This document shows positions 1 through 54,121 of a stretch of 64,000 nucleotides of DNA, in pieces. Under the pieces are notes generated by a model. It was not told where the DNA came from. It did no database searches and worked only from the letters and a program-made list of their open reading frames with translations. How positions within the stretch are numbered: position 1 is the stretch's first letter; each line of letters begins with the position of its first letter. Origin of the DNA: an uncultured delta proteobacterium (GTDB lineage: Bacteria > Desulfobacterota > Binatia > UBA9968). The translations under genes and the position numbers were made by a program. The stretch covers positions 1-64,000 of the forward strand of contig CAVWLW010000044.1 of NCBI GenBank assembly GCA_963755715.1, in the 5' to 3' direction.

Positions 1-47
1 GACCGCAATCTTGTTCCTCCAGCGTTGCTGTGCGAAATTAGCGCGGC

Positions 48-1190
48 ATGAACGCCGCCAAAACTTTTCATCGCCGAGGTATCGTCGAAGGTTTTTTCGG
101 TCCGCTGTGGTCGATGGCACACCGGCGGCGGCTGTTCGCGTTCGGCGCGGAACGGGGGATGAATACTTATCTCTATGCGCCAAAAGACGACCCCTATCAT
201 CGAAAGCTATGGCGACAACCTTACCCCCCTTCGCAATGGCATGAGCTACTAAGTTTGATTCGAGCTGCACAAACGCAGCGAATCGATTTCGTCTACGGTT
301 TTCACCCCGGCGAGGGATTGTACTTCGGCGACGATCGCGCCGTTGGTATTCTCCTGCGCAAAGCACGGCGCTTTTACGACGCTGGTGTGCGCACCTTCGC
401 CGTCCTGTTCGACGATATCCCGTCGGAGCTTACCGATCCACGCGACCGGCGCGCATTCAAGAACAGTCTGGCCCGTGCCGAAGGGACTTGGATGGCCAAA
501 ATCATCGCCGCCCAGCCGGCGAGCTGGAGCGCCGTCGAGTGGTGGATTTGTCCTTCTTATTACAGCGAAGATGTTCTGCTCGAACGGGTCTTCGGCCAAT
601 TCGAACCGGAGTTTCTCGAAACTTTGGCGCAATATCTGCCGCCAAACATCCCCTGCTTCTGGACCGGGCCGTCGGTGGTTTCAAAAAGCATCACACTCGC
701 CCACGCACGGCGCGTCGCCAAGAAGATTCAGCGACCGCTGCTCCTGTGGGACAACTATCCGGTCAACGACCTGTCCATGCGCGACGAGTTACATATCGGC
801 CCACTCACCGGCCGCGATCCGCGCTTGCCGGATGCAGTCTACAGCTATCTGAACAATCCGTCGCTGCAGGAAGAGTTGAGTTTTATCCCGTTGGCAACGT
901 GCTTTGACTACGCCCATGCGCCGGCCAATTACCGAGCGGAATCGTCCTGGACAAAAATCGTTCGCCAGCGCTTCGGCGCCGAGGCGTTACCTCATTGGCG
1001 AGCGCTCAGGAGTTATGCTGAGGCGAGCATCACCGCCAAAAAAGATAAACGCGTGCTGCAACTAACACCAATCGAGAAGCGCCGACTGCAGTCGGCATTC
1101 GCCTACGTCGAACGAAATCGCGGTCGACGCTGGGTGAAAGAATTAGCACCGTGGCGCGCGGCCATAGTGAAACTGATTTCAGGTTTGTGA
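48..1190 (+). CDS. GH84 beta-N-acetylglucosaminidase (O-GlcNAcase/hyaluronidase family), catalytic domain only, no signal peptide
   Basis: Motifs RGIVEGFFG, YLYAPKDDPYHR, catalytic FAVLFDDI, FWTGP, LWDNYPVND. Confidence 0.92.
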   Translation: MNAAKTFHRRGIVEGFFGPLWSMAHRRRLFAFGAERGMNTYLYAPKDDPYHRKLWRQPYPPSQWHELLSLIRAAQTQRIDFVYGFHPGEGLYFGDDRAVGILLRKARRFYDAGVRTFAVLFDDIPSELTDPRDRRAFKNSLARAEGTWMAKIIAAQPASWSAVEWWICPSYYSEDVLLERVFGQFEPEFLETLAQYLPPNIPCFWTGPSVVSKSITLAHARRVAKKIQRPLLLWDNYPVNDLSMRDELHIGPLTGRDPRLPDAVYSYLNNPSLQEELSFIPLATCFDYAHAPANYRAESSWTKIVRQRFGAEALPHWRALRSYAEASITAKKDKRVLQLTPIEKRRLQSAFAYVERNRGRRWVKELAPWRAAIVKLISGL

Positions 1191-1273
1191 CGGGTGGCGA
1201 TATGCATTAAATCAAGTAGAATAAATTCTTCGTGAATTGAATCGGTAAAGAATTTTTCGCGACAAATGCCCAA

Positions 1274-2696
1274 ATGCCGACGATGATCTCCAGTGCAACT
1301 GCCAGTTCTCTCCCGACCATGGACGTGCGCCAATTGATCGCAACCATGCGCGAGTTCCGTAGCCGCTTGCTCAGCCTGGTCGCCGACCTTGACGACGAGC
1401 AAATGATCGGCCCGCGCATCTCGATCGTCAATCCGCCGCTCTGGGAGATCGGCCATGTGGCGTGGACTCAGGAGTTCTGGGTGCTGCGCCACATGCGTAA
1501 CGAAAAGCCACTGCTGGAAAACGGCGACCGTCTTTACAACTCCACCGATGTCGCCCACGACACCCGTTGGGAGCTCTTGTTGCCGACGCGAGCGAGCACC
1601 CTCGCCTACATGAACGAAGTGCTCGAGCGTTGCGTCGCGCGCATCGACAACGCCAAAGAATTGTCCACCGATGAATTTTACTTCTACTGGTTGACGACCT
1701 TCCACGAAGGCATGCATGCCGAAGCGCTGGCCTACACGCGCCAGACTCTAGGCTATTCGGCGCCGGTCATCCAAGGCGAGCCGGCGGCCGCCGTCGATGG
1801 CGGCTCTCGTCTCGGTGACGTCGAGATCCCCGGTGGCAAATACTTGATCGGCGCGACCAAGGACTTTCCCTTTCGTCTTCGACAACGAGAAGTGGGCCCA
1901 TGAGGTCATGCTCAAACCTTTTCGCATCGCCCGGGCACCGGTCACCAACGGTGAGTTTCTCGAATTCGTCGAAGCGGGCGGCTACCGCGAGCGCCGCTTC
2001 TGGAGCGACGAGGGTTGGCACTGGCTCGAATCCGGCGGTTCGCCCCAGCTGGAAAAATCCTTCGCCAAGTTTTTCAACAAAACTCATAACGAACCGATAG
2101 AATTGAGCGCATTCAACGAACGACTCGACTGTCCGGTTTATTGGAGGGGCGAAGCGAATGGCCGCTGGCTTCAACGCATTTATGACCAATACCTCCCACT
2201 GAATGAAAATCTGCCCATCGTTCATGTGAGTTGGTATGAAGCCGAGGCGTTTTGCAATTGGGCCGGGCGTCGTCTTCCCAGCGAAACGGAATGGGAGGCT
2301 GCCGCTTCAGCCGAACCGAACGGCGGGCTCACCGGATCGCCTGAGCGCCGCTATTTTCCGTGGGGCGACGTAGCGCCAACTCCTGAACACGCCAATCTCG
2401 ATTGGCATAAGTCCGGCGTCGTCGAGGTCGGTGCTTACGCTGCCGGCGACAGCGCCTTCGGCTGCCGCCAGATGATCGGCAACATCTGGGAGTGGACCGC
2501 CGATGATTTTCAACCTTATCCGGGATTTATCATCGACCCCTACAAGGAATACTCAAAGCCCTGGTTCGGCACGCACAAAGTCCTGCGCGGCGGCTGCTGG
2601 GCGACTTCCTCGTTGCTCATTCGCAATACCTGGAGAAATTTTTATACTCCCGACCGGCGCGACGTCTGGGCCGGTTTCCGCACCTGCGCAAAATAA
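1274..2696 (+). CDS. senA: Selenoneine synthase SenA (EgtB-like DinB + FGE-sulfatase domain); joined across a frameshift at ~1870
   Basis: NPPLWEIGHVAW and HEGMHAE iron-binding His motifs; removing one T from ccctttc restores FVFDNEKWAH; C-terminal RLPSETEWE, GNIWEW, RGGCW, GFR; directly followed by senB. Confidence 0.85.
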
Positions 2697-2704
2697 TCTG
2701 CGGC

Positions 2705-3656
2705 ATGAATATACAGCTCGTCACGCCGGCGCCGCTGAAACTCAACAACGGCAATAAAATTACCGCCGTCCGTTGGGCCGGCATTTTCAAGAAACTTGGA
2801 CACCGGGTGCGCGTCACGCAAAACTATGACGGCAAACCTTGCGACGTGCTCATCGCGCTTCATGCCCGCCGCAGCGCCGACTCCATCCGCCGCTTTCACG
2901 AGTTGCATCCAGGGCTCCCGCTGATCGTGGTTCTCACCGGCACAGACATTTATCGCGACATTCGGCACGATCTAAAATGCTCAACGATCGCTTGAGATTG
3001 CGAGCCGTCTTGTCGTGCTGCAAAAAATGGCTTTACGTGAAATTCCGAAGCCTTTACGGCGGAAAACCCGAGTCATTTATCAATCGGCCGAGCCGATTCG
3101 AGCAAGCCGATCCCGCGCCAACGGCATCTTTGACGTTTGCGTCGTCGGTCATTTACGCGGCGAGAAAGATCCTTTGCGCGCAGCAATGGCGGTACGCGAT
3201 CTGCCATCGCAGTCGCGTATTCAGGTCACCCATATCGGTCTCGCTCTGGATCCGCGGCTGGAAAAAACCGCAAAGCAAGAAATCAGACGCAACCCGCGTT
3301 ATCGTTGGATCGGTCAGCTTTCACATGGAAAAACTCGCCAACGCTTGGCGCGCAGTGACCTCGTTTGCATTACGTCCAAGATGGAAGGCAGTTCCAACGT
3401 TTTGTCGGAGGCGCTGGCATCGCGGGTGCCGGTTGTGGCTTCGAGGATTTCAGGACTGATGGGCACTCTCGGCAATCGTTTTCCAGGCTATTTTCCGGTT
3501 GGCGACACCGAGCGACTGAAAGCACTATTGCTAAAGGCGGAATCGCAACCTAAATTTTACCGTGACTTGACTCGTTATTGCGCGCGTCTATCGGATCGGG
3601 TCAAGCCCAAGCGCGAGATCGAGGCTTGGCGCCGGCTCCTCGCGCAATTTGCTTGA
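2705..3656 (+). CDS. senB: Selenosugar synthase SenB (GT-B glycosyltransferase, TIGR04348-like); joined across a frameshift at ~2975
   Basis: NNGNKITAVRW, IALHARRSA, VVLTGTDIYRD, GHLRGEKDP, EGSSNVLSEA; extra A in ctaaaatg. Confidence 0.88.
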
Positions 3657-3676
3657 GGTATCAGAGGCGAAATGAA

Positions 3677-4930
3677 TCACTCCCGCCGCTCTTCTTGAAT
3701 CCACGGCTTGACCCACGGCAAGAGCAAATAGGCCGGCATCGAGAGCAGAAAAGTGATCGCAAAGTAGTCGCCGAAACCGAATTTTTCCGCGCCCAAGCCG
3801 CTGATCCCGCCGATCAACCGTCCGGTAAGAGAAAATACCGAAGAGAGAAACGCGTACTGGACGGTCGCGTGTTCCTTTTGGCAGACATTCATGAGAAACG
3901 CCAGAAATGCCGCGGTGCCGAGCCCGCCGCTGAAAGATTCGAACATGGACGCGCCGTAGAGGCCGAAGCGGCCGAGATCGAACCACTCCACCAGGGAGTA
4001 GCTGAGATTGGATACCGCTTGAAGCAAACCGAGAAACCACACGCCGTGAAAGATTCCGTAACGCGTGATGAACGCGCCGCCGATTAAGGCGCCCACGATG
4101 CTAAGTACGATACCGAAAGTGGTCGGAAACAAACCGATCTGAAACATCAGCTCTTCCGGCACCGGCCAGATCGTCTTGCCGTAATCGACCCAAAACGGTT
4201 TGACCATCGGTCCGATGGCAAACTCGCCGAGTTTATAAGTCAGGACAAATAAAACCAGCGGAATTACGCGCCAGGTGCCGGCCCAGCCGATAAATCCTTT
4301 CCACCAATGCCCTCGCGCTTCCTCCGGCAGACTCTGGCGCGGAATCCTCAGCGCGGCGAAGCCCAAGAGCGCAAAGATTACACTGGCCAAAATGAACAAC
4401 GAATTCCACTGCAAAACCGCCGCGAGAAAAACCAAGCCGCCGCCGGCGCACACCAGCGCCACCCGATACGCCGATGCCCGGACGCCGTTGGCCGCGCCTT
4501 CTTCCTCGCGAGTGATCAATCCAACCGAATAAGAATCGATGGCGATATCCTGCGTCGCAGACATCGTCGTCAACGCGAGAATCAGAAGCAAAACAATGAT
4601 CCCGACGGCCGCAACGTTCACGAACGGCAGAACAAAAAGAACGGTGGCGATGCCGAGCATGCATGCCAGCACCCAAACGCGCCGATCGCCATAACGATGC
4701 ACGAGCGGCGACCAGAACACTTTGAGCGAATAGGGTAATTCCAGCAACCGCAGTCCGCCAATCGCCCGCAGCGAAACCCCATGCAGGCGAAAGTAAACCG
4801 GCAGCACTTCCCATAAGATCGCCGCCGGCGCGCCTTGAATGAAATAGAGCAGCGCCACGATGCCGAGTTTTTTTCGCGACGCCGGCGAATTTCCGCTTAC
4901 TCCTAAAAATTTCCAAATCCAAGAATACAT
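3677..4930 (-). CDS. AmpG-family MFS permease
   Basis: LPYSLKVFWSPLV, SATQDIAIDSY, ATVQYAFLSS; about 12 hydrophobic segments. Confidence 0.85.
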   Translation of the reverse strand: MYSWIWKFLGVSGNSPASRKKLGIVALLYFIQGAPAAILWEVLPVYFRLHGVSLRAIGGLRLLELPYSLKVFWSPLVHRYGDRRVWVLACMLGIATVLFVLPFVNVAAVGIIVLLLILALTTMSATQDIAIDSYSVGLITREEEGAANGVRASAYRVALVCAGGGLVFLAAVLQWNSLFILASVIFALLGFAALRIPRQSLPEEARGHWWKGFIGWAGTWRVIPLVLFVLTYKLGEFAIGPMVKPFWVDYGKTIWPVPEELMFQIGLFPTTFGIVLSIVGALIGGAFITRYGIFHGVWFLGLLQAVSNLSYSLVEWFDLGRFGLYGASMFESFSGGLGTAAFLAFLMNVCQKEHATVQYAFLSSVFSLTGRLIGGISGLGAEKFGFGDYFAITFLLSMPAYLLLPWVKPWIQEERRE

Positions 4931-4998: not shown

Positions 4999-5736
4999 TT
5001 AAACCATCGCCGAAACGTTAACTTTTTTGTTGACAGGCGATGCTCGGTTCACCCGCGAAACTTTGCGTTTCATGAGCTCGGTTTTGCATCGAGCAGCCAA
5101 CGCGCAAACCAAGGTAGCCAACGCTGCGCCGACCAACTGGGCGGCGACAAAAAGCGGTACGCTGCGTGGTGAGATTCCGGCAAAGGTGTCGGTCATTGCG
5201 CGCGCAAACGTCACGGCGGGATTGGCAAAAGATGTGGACGATGTGAACCAATAAGCGCTCGTGATGAAGGCAGCGACGATCATCGGGATCGCCTCGCTGC
5301 GGTATCGCAGCGCGAGTAATATAACCATTACCAAGCCGAACGTCGCGATCGCTTCGCCTAAGCCTTCGCCGAGCGTCGGTCGCAGGTGCACCGAGAATTG
5401 AACGATCGGCAGTCCAAACATCGCGTGCGCCGCGGCGACACCGAGCAAAGCGCCGCCGAACTGGGCCAGTACATAGACGACGCAGCGGTCGCGCGAGAGC
5501 CGCCCCTCCCAAACGCTCACGGCGGAAACAACCGGATTGAAGTGCGCGCCTGAAATCGGTCCAAAGACGATGATCAATGTGTAGAGTCCGGCGCCCGTGG
5601 CGATGGAATTAGCCAGCAAGGCGATCGCCGGGTTCCCTTGAGCCAGCCGCTCGCCCATGATGCCGGAGCCCACCACGATCGCCAGCAGGAGCGCTGTTCC
5701 GATAGTCTCCGCTGCGACTGCTCTGCCAAGCGTCAT
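4999..5736 (-). CDS. MIP/aquaglyceroporin, AqpS-like arsenite channel
   Basis: SGAHFNPVV and SFANPAVT NPA boxes; overlaps the arsC stop. Confidence 0.9.
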   Translation of the reverse strand: MTLGRAVAAETIGTALLLAIVVGSGIMGERLAQGNPAIALLANSIATGAGLYTLIIVFGPISGAHFNPVVSAVSVWEGRLSRDRCVVYVLAQFGGALLGVAAAHAMFGLPIVQFSVHLRPTLGEGLGEAIATFGLVMVILLALRYRSEAIPMIVAAFITSAYWFTSSTSFANPAVTFARAMTDTFAGISPRSVPLFVAAQLVGAALATLVCALAARCKTELMKRKVSRVNRASPVNKKVNVSAMV

Positions 5737-6230
5737 TGCGTGCGACCGATCTGGTCCAGTTTCTCCTTAAGCGCGAGACCGCTGAGTGTGTCGAGCGGGA
5801 GATTGATAAACAGCGATATGCGCCGATGTAGCTCCGTATACGCTTTAAGAAAAGCTCTCCGCTTGTCTTCATCGCTGCCTTGAACTGCCGCTGGGTCATG
5901 AACACCCCAGTGCGCTGTCATCGGTTGCCCGGGCCAGACCGGACAAGGTTCCGCCGCCGCTTGATCACACACGGTGAACACGAAATGCATAAACGGCGCG
6001 CCCGGCCGGGAGAACTCGCTCCAGTCCTTGCTGCGCAGTCCTTGGGTGGAGAGACGATTTTTTTCGATGAGCTCCAATGCAAGAGGATTCACCGTCCCCG
6101 CTGGATGGCTCCCCGCGCTGAATGCTTTGAACTTATTCTTTCCGAGAGCGTTGAGCATCGCCTCCGCCAAAATGCTGCGCGCCGAATTGCCGGTGCACAG
6201 AAACAGAACGTTAAACGGTTCGTTTGCCAT
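5733..6230 (-). CDS. arsC: Arsenate reductase, LMW-PTP family
   Basis: VLFLCTGNSARS P-loop, VCDQAAAEPCP, HWGVHDPA; GGAG RBS ahead of ATG 6230. Confidence 0.92.
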   Translation of the reverse strand: MANEPFNVLFLCTGNSARSILAEAMLNALGKNKFKAFSAGSHPAGTVNPLALELIEKNRLSTQGLRSKDWSEFSRPGAPFMHFVFTVCDQAAAEPCPVWPGQPMTAHWGVHDPAAVQGSDEDKRRAFLKAYTELHRRISLFINLPLDTLSGLALKEKLDQIGRTQ

Positions 6231-6262
6231 AATAATCTCCTTCAAGCGCAGCAGGCGGCGGA

Positions 6263-6688
6263 TTAGCCGACTGGATATTGTGGTCGGGTGGTGCAGCAAA
6301 CAGTCGGGCGGTCCATGCCTACCTCCTCTTCCGTTTTGGGTTTCGTTTGCGGAGGACAACAGCGCCCCAGCGCCGTTTCGACAACCGTGAGACACTCCTG
6401 CGGCATGCCCCGACAGCAATTCTGCGTGAGAAAAGTCATGAGCTCGGCCATACGTCCGAAGTCTACCGCGTAGTAGATGAATTGCTTTTCCTGTCGCGCG
6501 GAAACGAGAGAAGCACGACTAAGTTCTTTCAAATGGAAGGACAACGTCGCTCCAGGAACATTCAGCTTTTCACCGATACGACCGGCCGCCATTCCTTGGG
6601 GTCCTGCCTCAACCAGCAGACGATAGATCGAGAGCCGCGTTTCCTGGGCGAGCGCGGCGAGCGCAGTGACAGCCGTTTTTATTTCCAT
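6263..6688 (-). CDS. arsR: ArsR/SmtB repressor with C-terminal Cys-Cys; the true stop may be at ~6319 (see findings)
   Basis: ALAQETRLSIYRLL, ATLSFHLKEL HTH, FLTQNCC. Confidence 0.92.
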   Translation of the reverse strand: MEIKTAVTALAALAQETRLSIYRLLVEAGPQGMAAGRIGEKLNVPGATLSFHLKELSRASLVSARQEKQFIYYAVDFGRMAELMTFLTQNCCRGMPQECLTVVETALGRCCPPQTKPKTEEEVGMDRPTVCCTTRPQYPVG

Positions 6689-21815: not shown

Positions 21816-22812
21816 CTAGCGCCCGTCGTAAACTTTCGCGATAAAGCCTTCGCTCTCGAGCTCTGCGATCAGGCTCCGGTCGGTGAAGTCCTCCACCTTG
21901 AGTTGGTTGGTCTGCGGCACGGTGGCCGCGAGTTGCGTCAGCGCCACGCCCATCAACTTGGGATCGGGGATCGGAATTTTTTCGTGGACGGTTTTATAGA
22001 CTTCGAAGATCTTGTCGAGCACCGATCGATCGCTGGTCTTGAGAAACTTTTGCATTACCGAGACGGTATATTCTTTGTCGGTCTTCGCTGTCTTGATGCC
22101 CTCGATCCAGCCGCGCAAAAATCTTTTCACCGTGTCTCGCTTGGCCGCAAGAAAGGATTTGCTGACGATGATCGTGCTGCTCGGATAGTGGATCGGCAGT
22201 TGGCTGAAATCGATCAACTTATGAAATCCTAATTTCTCGGCTTCTAGAGCGGTATCACCGGTGACGATGGCGCCATCGACGGCGCCGACTTTGAGCGCAC
22301 CCAGCCGTTCGGGTAAGCCGCCTGATTGAATCACCGCGACGTCGCGGTCGGGAACTAAATTGTAGTGCCGCAACGCCGCGCGCAAGATCAAATCCGACAG
22401 TGAACCGTAGCGGTCGCCGCCGATCTTTTTATTTTTCAGCTCCTCCGGCCTTTTGATCGAGGCTGCGGGTCATGATGACGTGCAGCAAACGATTCGATGT
22501 CACGCCGACGGCGCTCAGTTCCGCGCCGCGCGCCCAGGCGGTCAGCGCTGGCGCCGAACTCATGTTGGCGATGTCCACTTGGCCGGACAAGATCGCCGGC
22601 ACGATCACGGAACCGGCGGAAATATAGATCAGCTGTACATCCAAGCCGTGCTTTTTGAAAAACCCTGCCTGATCCGCGATCCACAACGGCGCATAATTAG
22701 GCGACAGTGCTGCAAACGGAACTTTTAAACTTTGCGCTGCGGCGGGAACGCTATAAGCGCAAAGCCAGGCGATCGCCAATGCGAACCGAAGCTTCCACGC
22801 GCGCAGTCGCAT
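21816..22812 (-). CDS. NMT1/SsuA-type substrate-binding protein; frameshifted around 22410-22465
   Basis: APLWIADQAGFFKKHGLD in one frame; ERLGALKVGAVD and LIAELESEGF in another. Confidence 0.8.
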
Positions 22813-22825
22813 CGCCGGTAGAAGG

Positions 22826-23446
22826 TTAGCTGGCGGAAGCGCGCTGCAGAGGAATGCTTTCGGATACCAGCTTGAGATCATCGGAGTGTGAGACCGTAAC
22901 GTTAAAATTGTAGGCATTGGAGCGGAATTGATGGAGGGCAAATGGCTGCGATTGCGGATGGACGCCGTGGATGCAGTCTTCGGGCACGATGCTGTAGTAA
23001 TTCCTGATGTGGAAGCCAATGACCGCATGATAGACGCAATTACTCGATCCAATGCCGGTGACGACAATTTTATCCCGGCACGGCCGCAGGTCGAGCTTTT
23101 CCAGCGTCGCTTCCATGGAGGTTTTGTAGAAGCAGTCATGGGAGGTTTTCTGCACGACATTCTCACCGGGCAGCGGCTGTAGCTCCTCGACGAAATCCGC
23201 GCCCGGGCTGCCGAGCAGCAAGCCATACGGCCGTCCGAAGACCGTAAATTCAGGGTGATCTTTGGTGCGGACGGATTGAACGTGAATGATCTTTCCGTTC
23301 ACGGCGCGAAAGCGATCGAGCAGGCGGCGGATATTGCCGATGACGGGTTTCATGCCGGCCCCATGGCGCTCGCACCCTTCCACCTGCATATCGACAATGA
23401 CGAGACCCGTAGACTCCGGCTGCAATTCGATTTTCGCGTTGGCCAT
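22826..23446 (-). CDS. Isochorismatase/cysteine hydrolase
   Basis: Asp-Lys-Cys triad: VIVDMQ, VQKTSH, GIGSSNCV. Confidence 0.88.
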   Translation of the reverse strand: MANAKIELQPESTGLVIVDMQVEGCERHGAGMKPVIGNIRRLLDRFRAVNGKIIHVQSVRTKDHPEFTVFGRPYGLLLGSPGADFVEELQPLPGENVVQKTSHDCFYKTSMEATLEKLDLRPCRDKIVVTGIGSSNCVYHAVIGFHIRNYYSIVPEDCIHGVHPQSQPFALHQFRSNAYNFNVTVSHSDDLKLVSESIPLQRASAS

Positions 23447-53172: not shown

Positions 53173-54121
53173 ATGGCTAGAAACATTTTGGTGGCGCTTT
53201 GGCTTTTCGCCGAGATGTTATTGCCTCGGTCGTCCTCGGCGGCCGACGCGCAACAAAAAGTTCGGATCGGATATCCGTCGTCAGCCGTTTCGACCCTTCC
53301 CTTCGACATCGCCAAAGAGAAAGGCTTTTACACCAAAGCAGGTCTGGAGGTCGAATACATCCAGATGCGCAGCGCCATCGGCCCGCAAGCGATCTTGAAC
53401 GGAAATATTAACTTCTTCACTTCGCCGCAAGCCGCGATCAACGCTGCGGTCGCCGGCTTGCCTCTCGTGGTCGTGCTGTCACTTTACCGCGACACGCCTG
53501 TGGGTGTTGGTGACAAGTAAAGACATTGCCAAACCCCAGGATCTCGCAGGCAAAAAGATCGCGATCTCCGACATCCGATCGTCGCCCTACTATTTCGCGC
53601 GCGCCGGATTGAAGAAACTCGCATTAGACGAGAAGCAGGTCAGCCTTGTCACCACCGGCGGGACTTCGAACAGTTTCGCGACGCTCGCAACCAATCAGGT
53701 AGCTGGGGCGGTCTTGAGCCCGCCGTTTGACGACAAGGCGGTTTCCTCCGGCTATAAGAAATTTCTTTTTCTCGGCGACCTCGCGGATATTCCCTACGTC
53801 GGACTGTTTACGTCCCAATCTGAGATTCGCAATAGCCGCGACCGGATTAGAAAAACTATATCGGCGGTGCTGGACGCGGTCGCATGGCAGCGCGCCAACC
53901 GCGCTGAAACTATCAAGATAATTGCCGCGCGCTTCAAAATCAGCGCAAACGAGGCGGAACATTCCTACGAGACTATCATCGGCATTCTTTCGCCCGACGG
54001 CGCCATGGATTTGAAAAAAGTGCGCGGCTACTTGACGCTGCTCCGAGAAGAACGGCCCCTACCGGAAAGTTTGGATGCCGAGAAATTGGTCGATTTCTCG
54101 ATGTTGCCATCGGCGCGCTAG
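53173..54121 (+). CDS. NMT1/SsuA-type substrate-binding protein; frameshift at ~53500
   Basis: IAKEKGFYTKAGLE, then DLAGKKIAI in the next frame. Confidence 0.82.

Follow-up and report, generated by a model that had tools for sequence, protein, structure and literature searches.

A GH84 glycoside hydrolase gene kept beside the selenoneine genes senA and senB in the Binatia, and its candidate role in seleno-N-acetylglucosamine metabolism

The 64,000-nucleotide stretch of DNA analysed here, called the window, covers the initial 64 kb of contig CAVWLW010000044.1 (C44) in the genome of an uncultured delta proteobacterium of the Binatia (assembly GCA_963755715.1, 7.4 Mb in 76 contigs, G000 in our numbering). 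It opens with a gene for a glycoside hydrolase of family GH84, followed on the same strand by senA and senB, the genes for selenoneine synthase and selenosugar synthase. A functional tie between this GH84 and the pathway of seleno-N-acetylglucosamine (SeGlcNAc) appears well supported, since the adjacency is found across the order, the sen-linked enzymes fall in one clade, and the clade members lacking a nearby sen gene occur only in SenB-positive genomes; that the enzyme works in this pathway at all seems very probable. With regard to its substrate and reaction, we tentatively favour an accessory enzyme of the SenA/SenB selenoneine pathway that would cut the beta-Se-GlcNAc bond of hercynyl-SeGlcNAc.

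A first-pass annotation of the window had described a GH84 without signal peptide, with an intact Asp-Asp pair, located 83 bp upstream of the co-oriented senA-senB genes, and this description holds (PF07555 match, D122-D123, open reading frames (ORFs)). It had further suggested that the enzyme may act on Se-GlcNAc or on a conjugate of it; linkage, clade membership, co-occurrence and sugar chemistry now strengthen the tie to the pathway, while the identity of the bond cut stays at the level of a proposal.

Linkage of GH84 and senB across the order

The survey covered 120 other genomes of the order, four of which are flagged as unpublished (G005, G387, G390 and G401), with SenB called at E <= 1e-30. 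SenB was found in 106 of them, GH84 in 100, and both in 95. The two genes share a contig in 83 genomes, and in all 83 GH84 is located upstream of senB on the same strand, at a distance of 0.3-4.5 kb; the adjacency noted in the first-pass annotation is thus clearly present in relatives. The 12 genomes carrying GH84 and senB on separate contigs are nearly all fragmented assemblies. Seven of the 11 genomes with SenB only, and four of the five with GH84 only, were inspected: the contig ends inside senA or just beyond in five of the former, and in senA in three of the latter. The sole genus without SenB (g5, two genomes, 95% and 81% complete) is also devoid of GH84. Within the phylum, SenB is confined to this order, as shown by a sample of 300 other genomes in which it was found in two, one of them above the cut-off.

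Gene order around this pair varies from one family to another. In family f3, the order is GH84-senA-senB, and in nine of 12 loci the GH84 stop meets or overlaps the senA start (-34 to +4 nt). Family f2 (three genomes) and G383 have GH84 as the immediate neighbour of senB and carry a full-scoring senA at a distant place in the genome; the order in G383 is egtD-GH84-senB, and that in G402 is egtD-GH84-ABH-senA, where ABH denotes an alpha/beta-hydrolase. Other genera carry one to three genes inserted between GH84 and senA, the orientation being kept. In the family of the window, an HsaD-like ABH either immediately precedes GH84 or separates it from senA, egtD is found 0.2-8 kb upstream, and divergent upstream genes code for a protein with an FGE domain, whose start resembles a signal peptide by eye, and for a LysE-type exporter. 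In some genera, the interval from GH84 to senA encodes a VOC/glyoxalase protein of two domains as well as an SsuA-like binding protein.

A VOC/glyoxalase protein together with an HsaD/BphD-like alpha/beta-hydrolase was observed between GH84 and senA in five loci (L150:3671-6295, L054:7196-8846, L152:3416-5059, L155 and L156); GH84-senA orientation and short gaps are kept there, and an SsuA/NMT1-like protein is sometimes present. The short gene with an FGE-sulfatase domain, located upstream of GH84 in many loci and divergent from it, was considered as a second selenoxide synthase and rejected: it matches only positions ~164-326 of the SenA profile, has no DinB domain, and two examples display a hydrophobic start resembling a signal peptide by eye.

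Phylogeny and co-occurrence beyond the order

A search for GH84 in 185,579 species genomes, of which the best 80 loci were used, placed 19 of these loci at 58% identity or more to the window GH84, the next one being at 42%; neither senA nor senB was found within 6 kb of any of the 61 lower-identity loci among these 80. In a tree of 99 rows, two rows having been dropped as partial, the sen-linked GH84s form a core clade of 38 rows (35 different sequences) with a Shimodaira-Hasegawa-like approximate likelihood ratio test (SH-aLRT) support of 99, which bears out a possibility raised in the first-pass annotation. Three sister rows (L072, L073 and L089) join the core in a 41-row clade, likewise with an SH-aLRT of 99, and the same split was recovered at a support of 99.6 in a quick search of a 48-row subset under the LG+C20 mixture model. 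In the core clade, senB adjoins GH84 in 32 rows, and L049 and L051 have an adjacent senA followed by the contig end. No adjacent sen gene is present in L055, L057, L063 and L066, the contig ending at GH84 in the last of these.

The seven clade members not adjacent to sen genes, namely these four and the three sister rows, stem from Binatia, Burkholderiales and three other lineages, and the genomes of all seven hold a full-scoring SenB elsewhere, whereas SenB was found in none of the seven outgroup GH84 genomes tested. A SenA match was obtained in all ten clade genomes tested, above the cut-off in nine, the match in G728 being split in two pieces. It appears unlikely that GH84 of this clade is found only with SenB by chance: given a SenB base rate of at most 0.38 and about five independent lineages, a rough estimate, which is not a formal test, is of the order of 0.01. 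Among 300 genomes of Burkholderiales, SenB is present in 114 (including three unpublished), and GH84 in a single one, which is SenB-positive. In the surroundings of L057, L063, L072, L073 and L089, nothing related to selenium was recognised, most ORFs having no Pfam match.

A SenB motif tied to GH84 was also considered and rejected, as Binatia carry EGSSNV and all Burkholderiales an EGGA(N/H)V-like motif, regardless of GH84 status. In a metagenome-assembled genome of Burkholderiales (L057:6045-8102), the GH84 frame continues without a stop into a LysR-type regulator, giving an ORF of 685 residues; a gene fusion, a missing stop codon or an error of the assembly could account for this. Its weaker matches include the 'selenium metabolism-associated LysR' model (115 bits, below cut-off). 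Further, a genome of the sister GH84 clade carries two full-scoring senA genes in tandem downstream of a senB that has one in-frame TGA (G730:C84:17994-21661, L149).

These data bear on the reading that GH84 has no functional tie to the sen genes and is a housekeeping cytoplasmic GlcNAcase, acting for instance in muropeptide recycling as a NagZ analogue with an AmpG-like permease, its position being inherited synteny. Such a reading would agree with the origin of all 83 linked cases in one order of related genomes, with the presence of an AmpG-family neighbour, and with the GH84 genes that have no sen gene nearby in G415 and G005/G424, but G000 already has a NagZ-like GH3, and the linkage to senB has outlasted both rearrangements and insertions, and is also kept in loci devoid of the permease. 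The contrast between the seven SenB-positive unlinked members and the SenB-negative outgroup, the rarity of GH84 otherwise in Burkholderiales, and the joint absence of both genes from genus g5 also speak against it, and we regard it as quite improbable.

Features of the GH84 protein

The window GH84 matches PF07555 with an E-value of 3.7e-80 (269.8 bits for a cut-off of 25) over profile positions 1-286 of 295. Since its catalytic domain begins at residue 7-10, a signal peptide would not fit in front of it. The closest relative of solved structure is the O-GlcNAcase (OGA) of Thermobaculum (PDB 5DIY, a D120N mutant; E 5e-68 over residues 7-365), in which D119/D120 align with D122-D123, the Asp-Asp pair of the window enzyme; by a constant offset of 52, the pair corresponds to D174/D175 of human OGA. 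The NagJ-type equivalog model NF041654 gives 195 bits, short of its cut-off of 1000, and is matched over the catalytic part of its 732 positions only; among NCBIfam models, none for the sen-associated GH84 clade was found.

The sugar-site residues K46, D122, D123, Y172, N236, D241 and N270 are invariant, and K46, Y172, N236, D241 and N270 are kept in at least 90% of the alignment rows, inside and outside the sen-associated clade. Residues specific to the clade sit beside them in sequence. At F17, all 38 core-clade rows have Phe, and all 58 outgroup and all three sister rows have Tyr; this residue corresponds, by the same offset of 52, to Y69 of human OGA, described as a peptide backbone anchor (PMC5610315). 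H86, invariant in the clade, is Ser in most other rows, S170 is Thr in 98% of them, and an insertion of about ten residues (~173-184), which the sister group shares, follows the loop of the active-site Tyr. Further clade-specific residues are F185, E186, F189, C203 and Trp at 148, 160, 165 and 166. The sen-linked GH84 reads as an enzyme with an unchanged sugar site and a different aglycone site.

A role for this GH84 as a bacterial protein O-GlcNAcase, removing O-GlcNAc from proteins as do the enzymes of Thermobaculum and humans, seems extremely improbable. The proximity to 5DIY would suit this role, as would the likewise cytoplasmic nature of the Thermobaculum enzyme (TtOGA), which carries a helical bundle and has no signal peptide (PMC4683255). 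However, a GT41 O-GlcNAc transferase (PF13844) was not found in G000 (93.6% complete) by a search that was positive in two of 14 control genomes, the peptide-anchor Tyr is replaced by Phe throughout the core clade, and the Thermobaculum-type GH84 (L071) falls in the outgroup of the tree.

Candidate reaction and alternative substrates

In the known steps of the pathway, SenB converts UDP-GlcNAc and selenophosphate into 1-seleno-beta-GlcNAc, and SenA couples the latter oxidatively to hercynine, giving the hercynyl-SeGlcNAc selenoxide. The hercynyl-SeGlcNAc selenoether would be formed when this selenoxide is reduced instead of eliminating, and GH84 would cleave it by its usual mechanism, in which the 2-acetamido group displaces the aglycone. 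The leaving group, a selenone/selenolate, would be a very good one, and the products would be selenoneine and GlcNAc. GH84 enzymes require a beta-linked 2-acetamido sugar. The SenB product is reported to be the beta anomer of the selenosugar (PMC10891094), and SeGlcNAc to be preferred by SenA (Kayrouz et al., preprint 10.1101/2022.04.13.486033), so that the sugar chemistry fits. According to the same preprint, the reduced hercynyl-SeGlcNAc selenoether arises in vitro with dithiothreitol, and the title of Macauley 2005 announces the cleavage of thioglycosides by OGA. It is possible, though we put this forward with more reserve, that selenoneine is released in vivo by hydrolysis of hercynyl-SeGlcNAc and not by spontaneous elimination alone, which would make this GH84 a candidate for the first dedicated seleno-glycosidase. 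Three substrates linked to the pathway are plausible, which we rank in the order hercynyl-SeGlcNAc selenoether, 2-acetamidoglucal and free SeGlcNAc.

As to the second substrate, GH84 might hydrate the by-product 2-acetamidoglucal, which each turnover of SenA would set free through selenoxide elimination, to GlcNAc via the same oxazolinium intermediate, thereby recycling the sugar and removing a member of a compound class that inhibits hexosaminidases such as NagZ. 2-Acetamidoglucal is the released sugar observed for OvsA, to which SenA is stated to be analogous (PMC11030361), and this documented by-product was missing from the options of the first-pass annotation. Tight-binding inhibition of hexosaminidases has been described for N-acetyl glycals (Santana 2016, as cited in PMC6017319), and G000 has in its NagZ-like GH3 (contig C23, 269.5 bits) a possible target of such inhibition. 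The linkage and co-occurrence evidence fits this hydration equally well, and the invariant H86 together with the neighbouring changes could serve a changed proton transfer. We nonetheless consider it unlikely: hydration of a glycal by a GH84 was not found in the literature searched, where glycals are reported as inhibitors and not as substrates, nearly all SenB-positive Burkholderiales do without GH84 (see below), and the retention of both catalytic Asp and of all sugar-hydroxyl ligands is what ordinary glycoside cleavage needs.

Hydrolysis of free 1-seleno-beta-GlcNAc, or of another SenB-derived or imported seleno-GlcNAc compound, to selenide and GlcNAc appears rather unlikely. It could serve selenium homeostasis, salvage, or the use of selenosugars imported by the AmpG-family permease, and would be in line with the position of GH84 directly beside senB where senA is elsewhere (f2 and G383), as well as with the permease, which converges on senB in the majority of loci in the window's family and is full-scoring in G383. 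Such an activity would nevertheless create a futile cycle with SenB at the expense of UDP-GlcNAc and selenophosphate, the SenA match in each of the ten clade genomes tested means that no SenB-only case is found there, and the permease is missing in each of the 15 loci from the two other families.

Several observations weigh against the preferred reading, the cleavage of the hercynyl-SeGlcNAc selenoether. In vitro, the pathway operates in the absence of such an enzyme, the elimination of the selenoxide produced by SenA being spontaneous, as proposed in the preprint, which calls for no EgtE-like step (10.1101/2022.04.13.486033). S-GlcNAc on cysteine in peptides is not hydrolysed by human OGA, although OGA is reported to cleave thioglycosides; leaving-group quality therefore matters, and cleavage at Se is not assured. 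The retention of GH84 with senB, and not with senA, in family f2 fits a SenB product as substrate at least as well. As 113 of the 114 SenB-positive Burkholderiales have no GH84, the enzyme is accessory and dispensable for the pathway in general, and the sugar-site motifs of SenB do not track GH84 status. Since genomes of one order are kin, the 83 linked cases represent far fewer independent events. Finally, individual genomes depart from the pattern: the two genes are truly separated in G005/G424 (L055, unpublished), where 6 kb downstream of GH84 hold no sen gene, G400 and G397 have no GH84 in the ~2.3 and ~2.1 kb upstream of senA, and G415 (60% complete) carries a GH84 without a sen gene within 8 kb, SenB not having been found in that genome.

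Integrity of senA and senB

In the assembly, one +1 frameshift divides senA at the T run 1871-1873 and another divides senB at the A run 2974-2977, both of which the first-pass annotation had overlooked. NF041186 covers profile positions 4-190 and 201-382 in the two senA halves (172.1 and 274.9 bits, each below the cut-off of 420), and both domains are present; intact senA orthologues at the same place in relatives reach 482 and 491 bits, and remain below the EgtB cut-off. The senB pieces match positions 1-87 and 102-309 of TIGR04348, or 87-309 when read through, with 116 and 266.8 bits for a cut-off of 300, and orthologues in the corresponding position of relatives reach 340-418 bits. In the 41 genomes searched, which include G000, itself below the cut-off, senB is intact and above it in 33. 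The window SenB possesses the NGNxxT motif and the Glu of the donor-sugar motif, and eight bases separate senA from senB.

Soil metagenomes contain near-identical DNA, the whole stretch or part of it being present in 20 of the 24 runs listed, from nine studies. Logan contigs from four soil-metagenome runs (four studies) were aligned to window positions 1-3700: in all four runs, every covering contig has one letter fewer at 1863/1865 and at 2974, at full depth, and the sen reading frames are intact. A count made against the ORFs of eight same-genus loci yielded five frameshift sites in about 31 genes of G000 (10,818 aligned residues), that is about one per 6.5 kb, three of which hit unrelated genes on contigs C47 and C25. 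Because the extra bases are missing from all four runs and frameshifts are about as frequent in unrelated genes, we read the splits as consensus errors of the assembly, or at most as changes private to the strain, and senA and senB are most likely intact in nature. A genuine decay of the selenium genes, suggested by the splits in senA, senB and selD, was rejected for senA and senB on the same two grounds. The in-frame TGA of selD may code for selenocysteine. Genes called from G000 need frameshift-aware handling.

Surroundings of the locus

The features of the locus and of its surroundings are collected in Table 1. The first-pass annotation had taken senA-senB-senC as the canonical cluster, an arrangement not encountered here: the sole G000 selD above the cut-off is on contig C3, and selD was unseen in the 20-kb sen neighbourhoods of the relatives inspected, though no selD-specific query was used there. 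In the spacer between GH84 and senA, scans of the plus strand for sigma-70-like and terminator-like sites found none, and an Rfam scan gave zero matches. The metagenome contigs of three of the four runs (X2, X6 and X7) leave the window sequence at 1242-1246 with a common alternative sequence, so that the spacer differs among otherwise near-identical strains.

Table 1. Features of the sen locus, its surroundings and the split genes of genome G000 (positions refer to the window unless a contig is named)
Feature	Position	Strand	Basis or remark
GH84 beta-N-acetylglucosaminidase, 380 aa, predicted cytoplasmic	48..1190	+	PF07555, member of the sen-associated GH84 clade
AT-rich spacer GH84-senA, 83 bp	1191..1273	+	gap between GH84 and senA ORFs
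senA, selenoneine synthase, DinB and FGE-sulfatase domains, two frames	1274..2696 (1274-1903, 1908-2696)	+	NF041186
senB, selenosugar synthase, GT4-type, two frames	2705..3656 (2705-2995, 3015-3656)	+	TIGR04348
AmpG-family MFS permease, convergent with senB	3677..4930	-	TIGR00901, 245 bits, below cut-off 350
MIP-family channel and ArsC-like low-molecular-weight phosphatase (arsenate reductase type), 4-base overlap	4999-6419	-	beside the permease
Probable second split gene	21816-22391 / 22429-23226		
NMT1-like gene, split	53173-53520 / 53504-54121		clear case
ABH (alpha/beta-hydrolase)	C2:448-1275	-	
FGE-like gene	C2:1724-2518		
LysE exporter	C2:2547-3155		
egtD	C2:4180-5076	-	
selD, split, one in-frame TGA	C3:71086-72013		
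Gene with one frame shift	C25:32782-34447		
Gene with two frame shifts	C47:19822-21365		

Since contig C44 starts at window base 1, only 47 bases lie 5' of GH84. In four loci of relatives (L042, L045, L048 and L051), DNA matching the reversed start of contig C2 runs straight into the match to the C44 start, and in L042 and L045 an extra short match near C2 245-268 ends within a few bases of the latter. The synteny of L167 also joins the reversed C2 start to the C44 start, and the closest relative, G001, whose GH84 is 95% identical, carries LysE, FGE-like, then ABH-GH84-senA on a single contig. By synteny with these relatives, the island of G000 would run egtD ... LysE, FGE-like, ABH-GH84-senA-senB, AmpG-like. 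About 244 bases at the C2 end are without counterpart in relatives and may represent an insertion where the assembly broke.

AmpG transports GlcNAc-containing muropeptides. Its relative downstream of senB is 82-86% identical across the window's genus, which makes it more conserved than senA or senB, and directly follows senB in 20 loci of the window's family (two pairs being from the same genome); none of the 15 loci of the order's two other families carries it, and the full-scoring AmpG of G383 occupies the same place. It is conceivable that this permease moves a GlcNAc-Se compound or selenoneine. Next to it, the pair formed by the MIP channel and the ArsC-like protein recurs in L042, and L047 shares only the channel. 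Further along, window positions 14658-58549 hold at least eight ORFs for NMT1/SsuA-like periplasmic binding proteins, six Amidohydro_2 ORFs, and parts of ABC transporters.

Novelty and significance

The biosynthesis of selenoneine was described only in 2022, as a three-enzyme route with a non-enzymatic last step, and the mining that led to the sen genes began from selD neighbourhoods (preprint 10.1101/2022.04.13.486033). Since selD is absent from the clusters considered here, this mining would probably not have picked up these loci. No paper linking GH84 or an N-acetylglucosaminidase to selenoneine was found in the literature searched, and GH84 does not appear in the published table of gene families near NHISS genes (PMC13674229), in which rarer families may be unlisted.

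A fixed GH84 partner in the sen loci of a soil-bacterial order points to an undescribed enzymatic step handling the seleno-sugar. A fourth gene, of glycosidase type, is fixed in the cluster of this widespread order and tracks SenB in other phyla, which implies that the fate of the seleno-sugar adduct, or of the sugar by-product, may be under enzymatic control in vivo in these organisms. If GH84 cleaves the selenoether, the accepted three-enzyme pathway would lack a step in a large group of soil bacteria, an enzyme family known to remove O-GlcNAc from proteins would have been re-tooled for a C-Se bond, and its aromatic and acidic aglycone pocket would read the trimethyl-histidine part. Any Se-glycoside as substrate would make it a natural enzyme for cleaving C-Se glycosidic bonds, of interest for selenium biochemistry, for the leaving-group dependence of GH84 and for the biocatalytic production of selenoneine. 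The proposal also gives a candidate role to cytoplasmic bacterial GH84 enzymes that have no OGT partner.

Comparison with known systems

With the GH84 O-GlcNAcases, the window enzyme shares the Asp-Asp pair and all GlcNAc-binding residues, with E-values of about 1e-48 to 1e-43 against human OGA, Clostridium perfringens NagJ and Bacteroides BT_4395. TtOGA (5DIY) resembles it most in build, both being cytoplasmic, without signal peptide, and made of a catalytic domain and a helical region. In contrast to these O-GlcNAcases, the window enzyme has no OGT partner, belongs to a separate clade and is embedded in selenoneine genes, and its clade is set apart by a Phe in place of the peptide-anchoring Tyr, a His instead of Ser at position 86, a Ser instead of Thr at position 170 and the insertion of about ten residues. 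Unlike the secreted NagJ/BT_4395 type, it is devoid of carbohydrate-binding and other extra domains. NagZ, which acts in muropeptide recycling, is likewise a cytoplasmic beta-GlcNAcase and is often considered together with the AmpG permease, but it belongs to another family (GH3), of which G000 has its own gene elsewhere.

As to the sen genes, the relatives' senA and senB orthologues pass the NCBIfam equivalog cut-offs, as in the senC/selD-senA-senB cluster of Variovorax paradoxus, and EgtD supplies hercynine in both cases. Here, however, selD lies outside the cluster, GH84 leads the operon-like cluster, and the window's family adds an alpha/beta-hydrolase, sometimes a VOC-family protein, and the AmpG-family permease; moreover, the pathway as published ends, as far as enzymes are concerned, with SenA. 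EgtE and OvoB, which are pyridoxal phosphate-dependent C-S lyases, release the thiol in the biosynthesis of ergothioneine and ovothiol. The role proposed for GH84 would be analogous to theirs, namely the dedicated removal of a carrier group after a sulfoxide or selenoxide synthase, whereas fold and chemistry are unrelated: a pyridoxal phosphate beta-lyase acts there on cysteine carried by S, and a glycoside hydrolase would act here on GlcNAc carried by Se.

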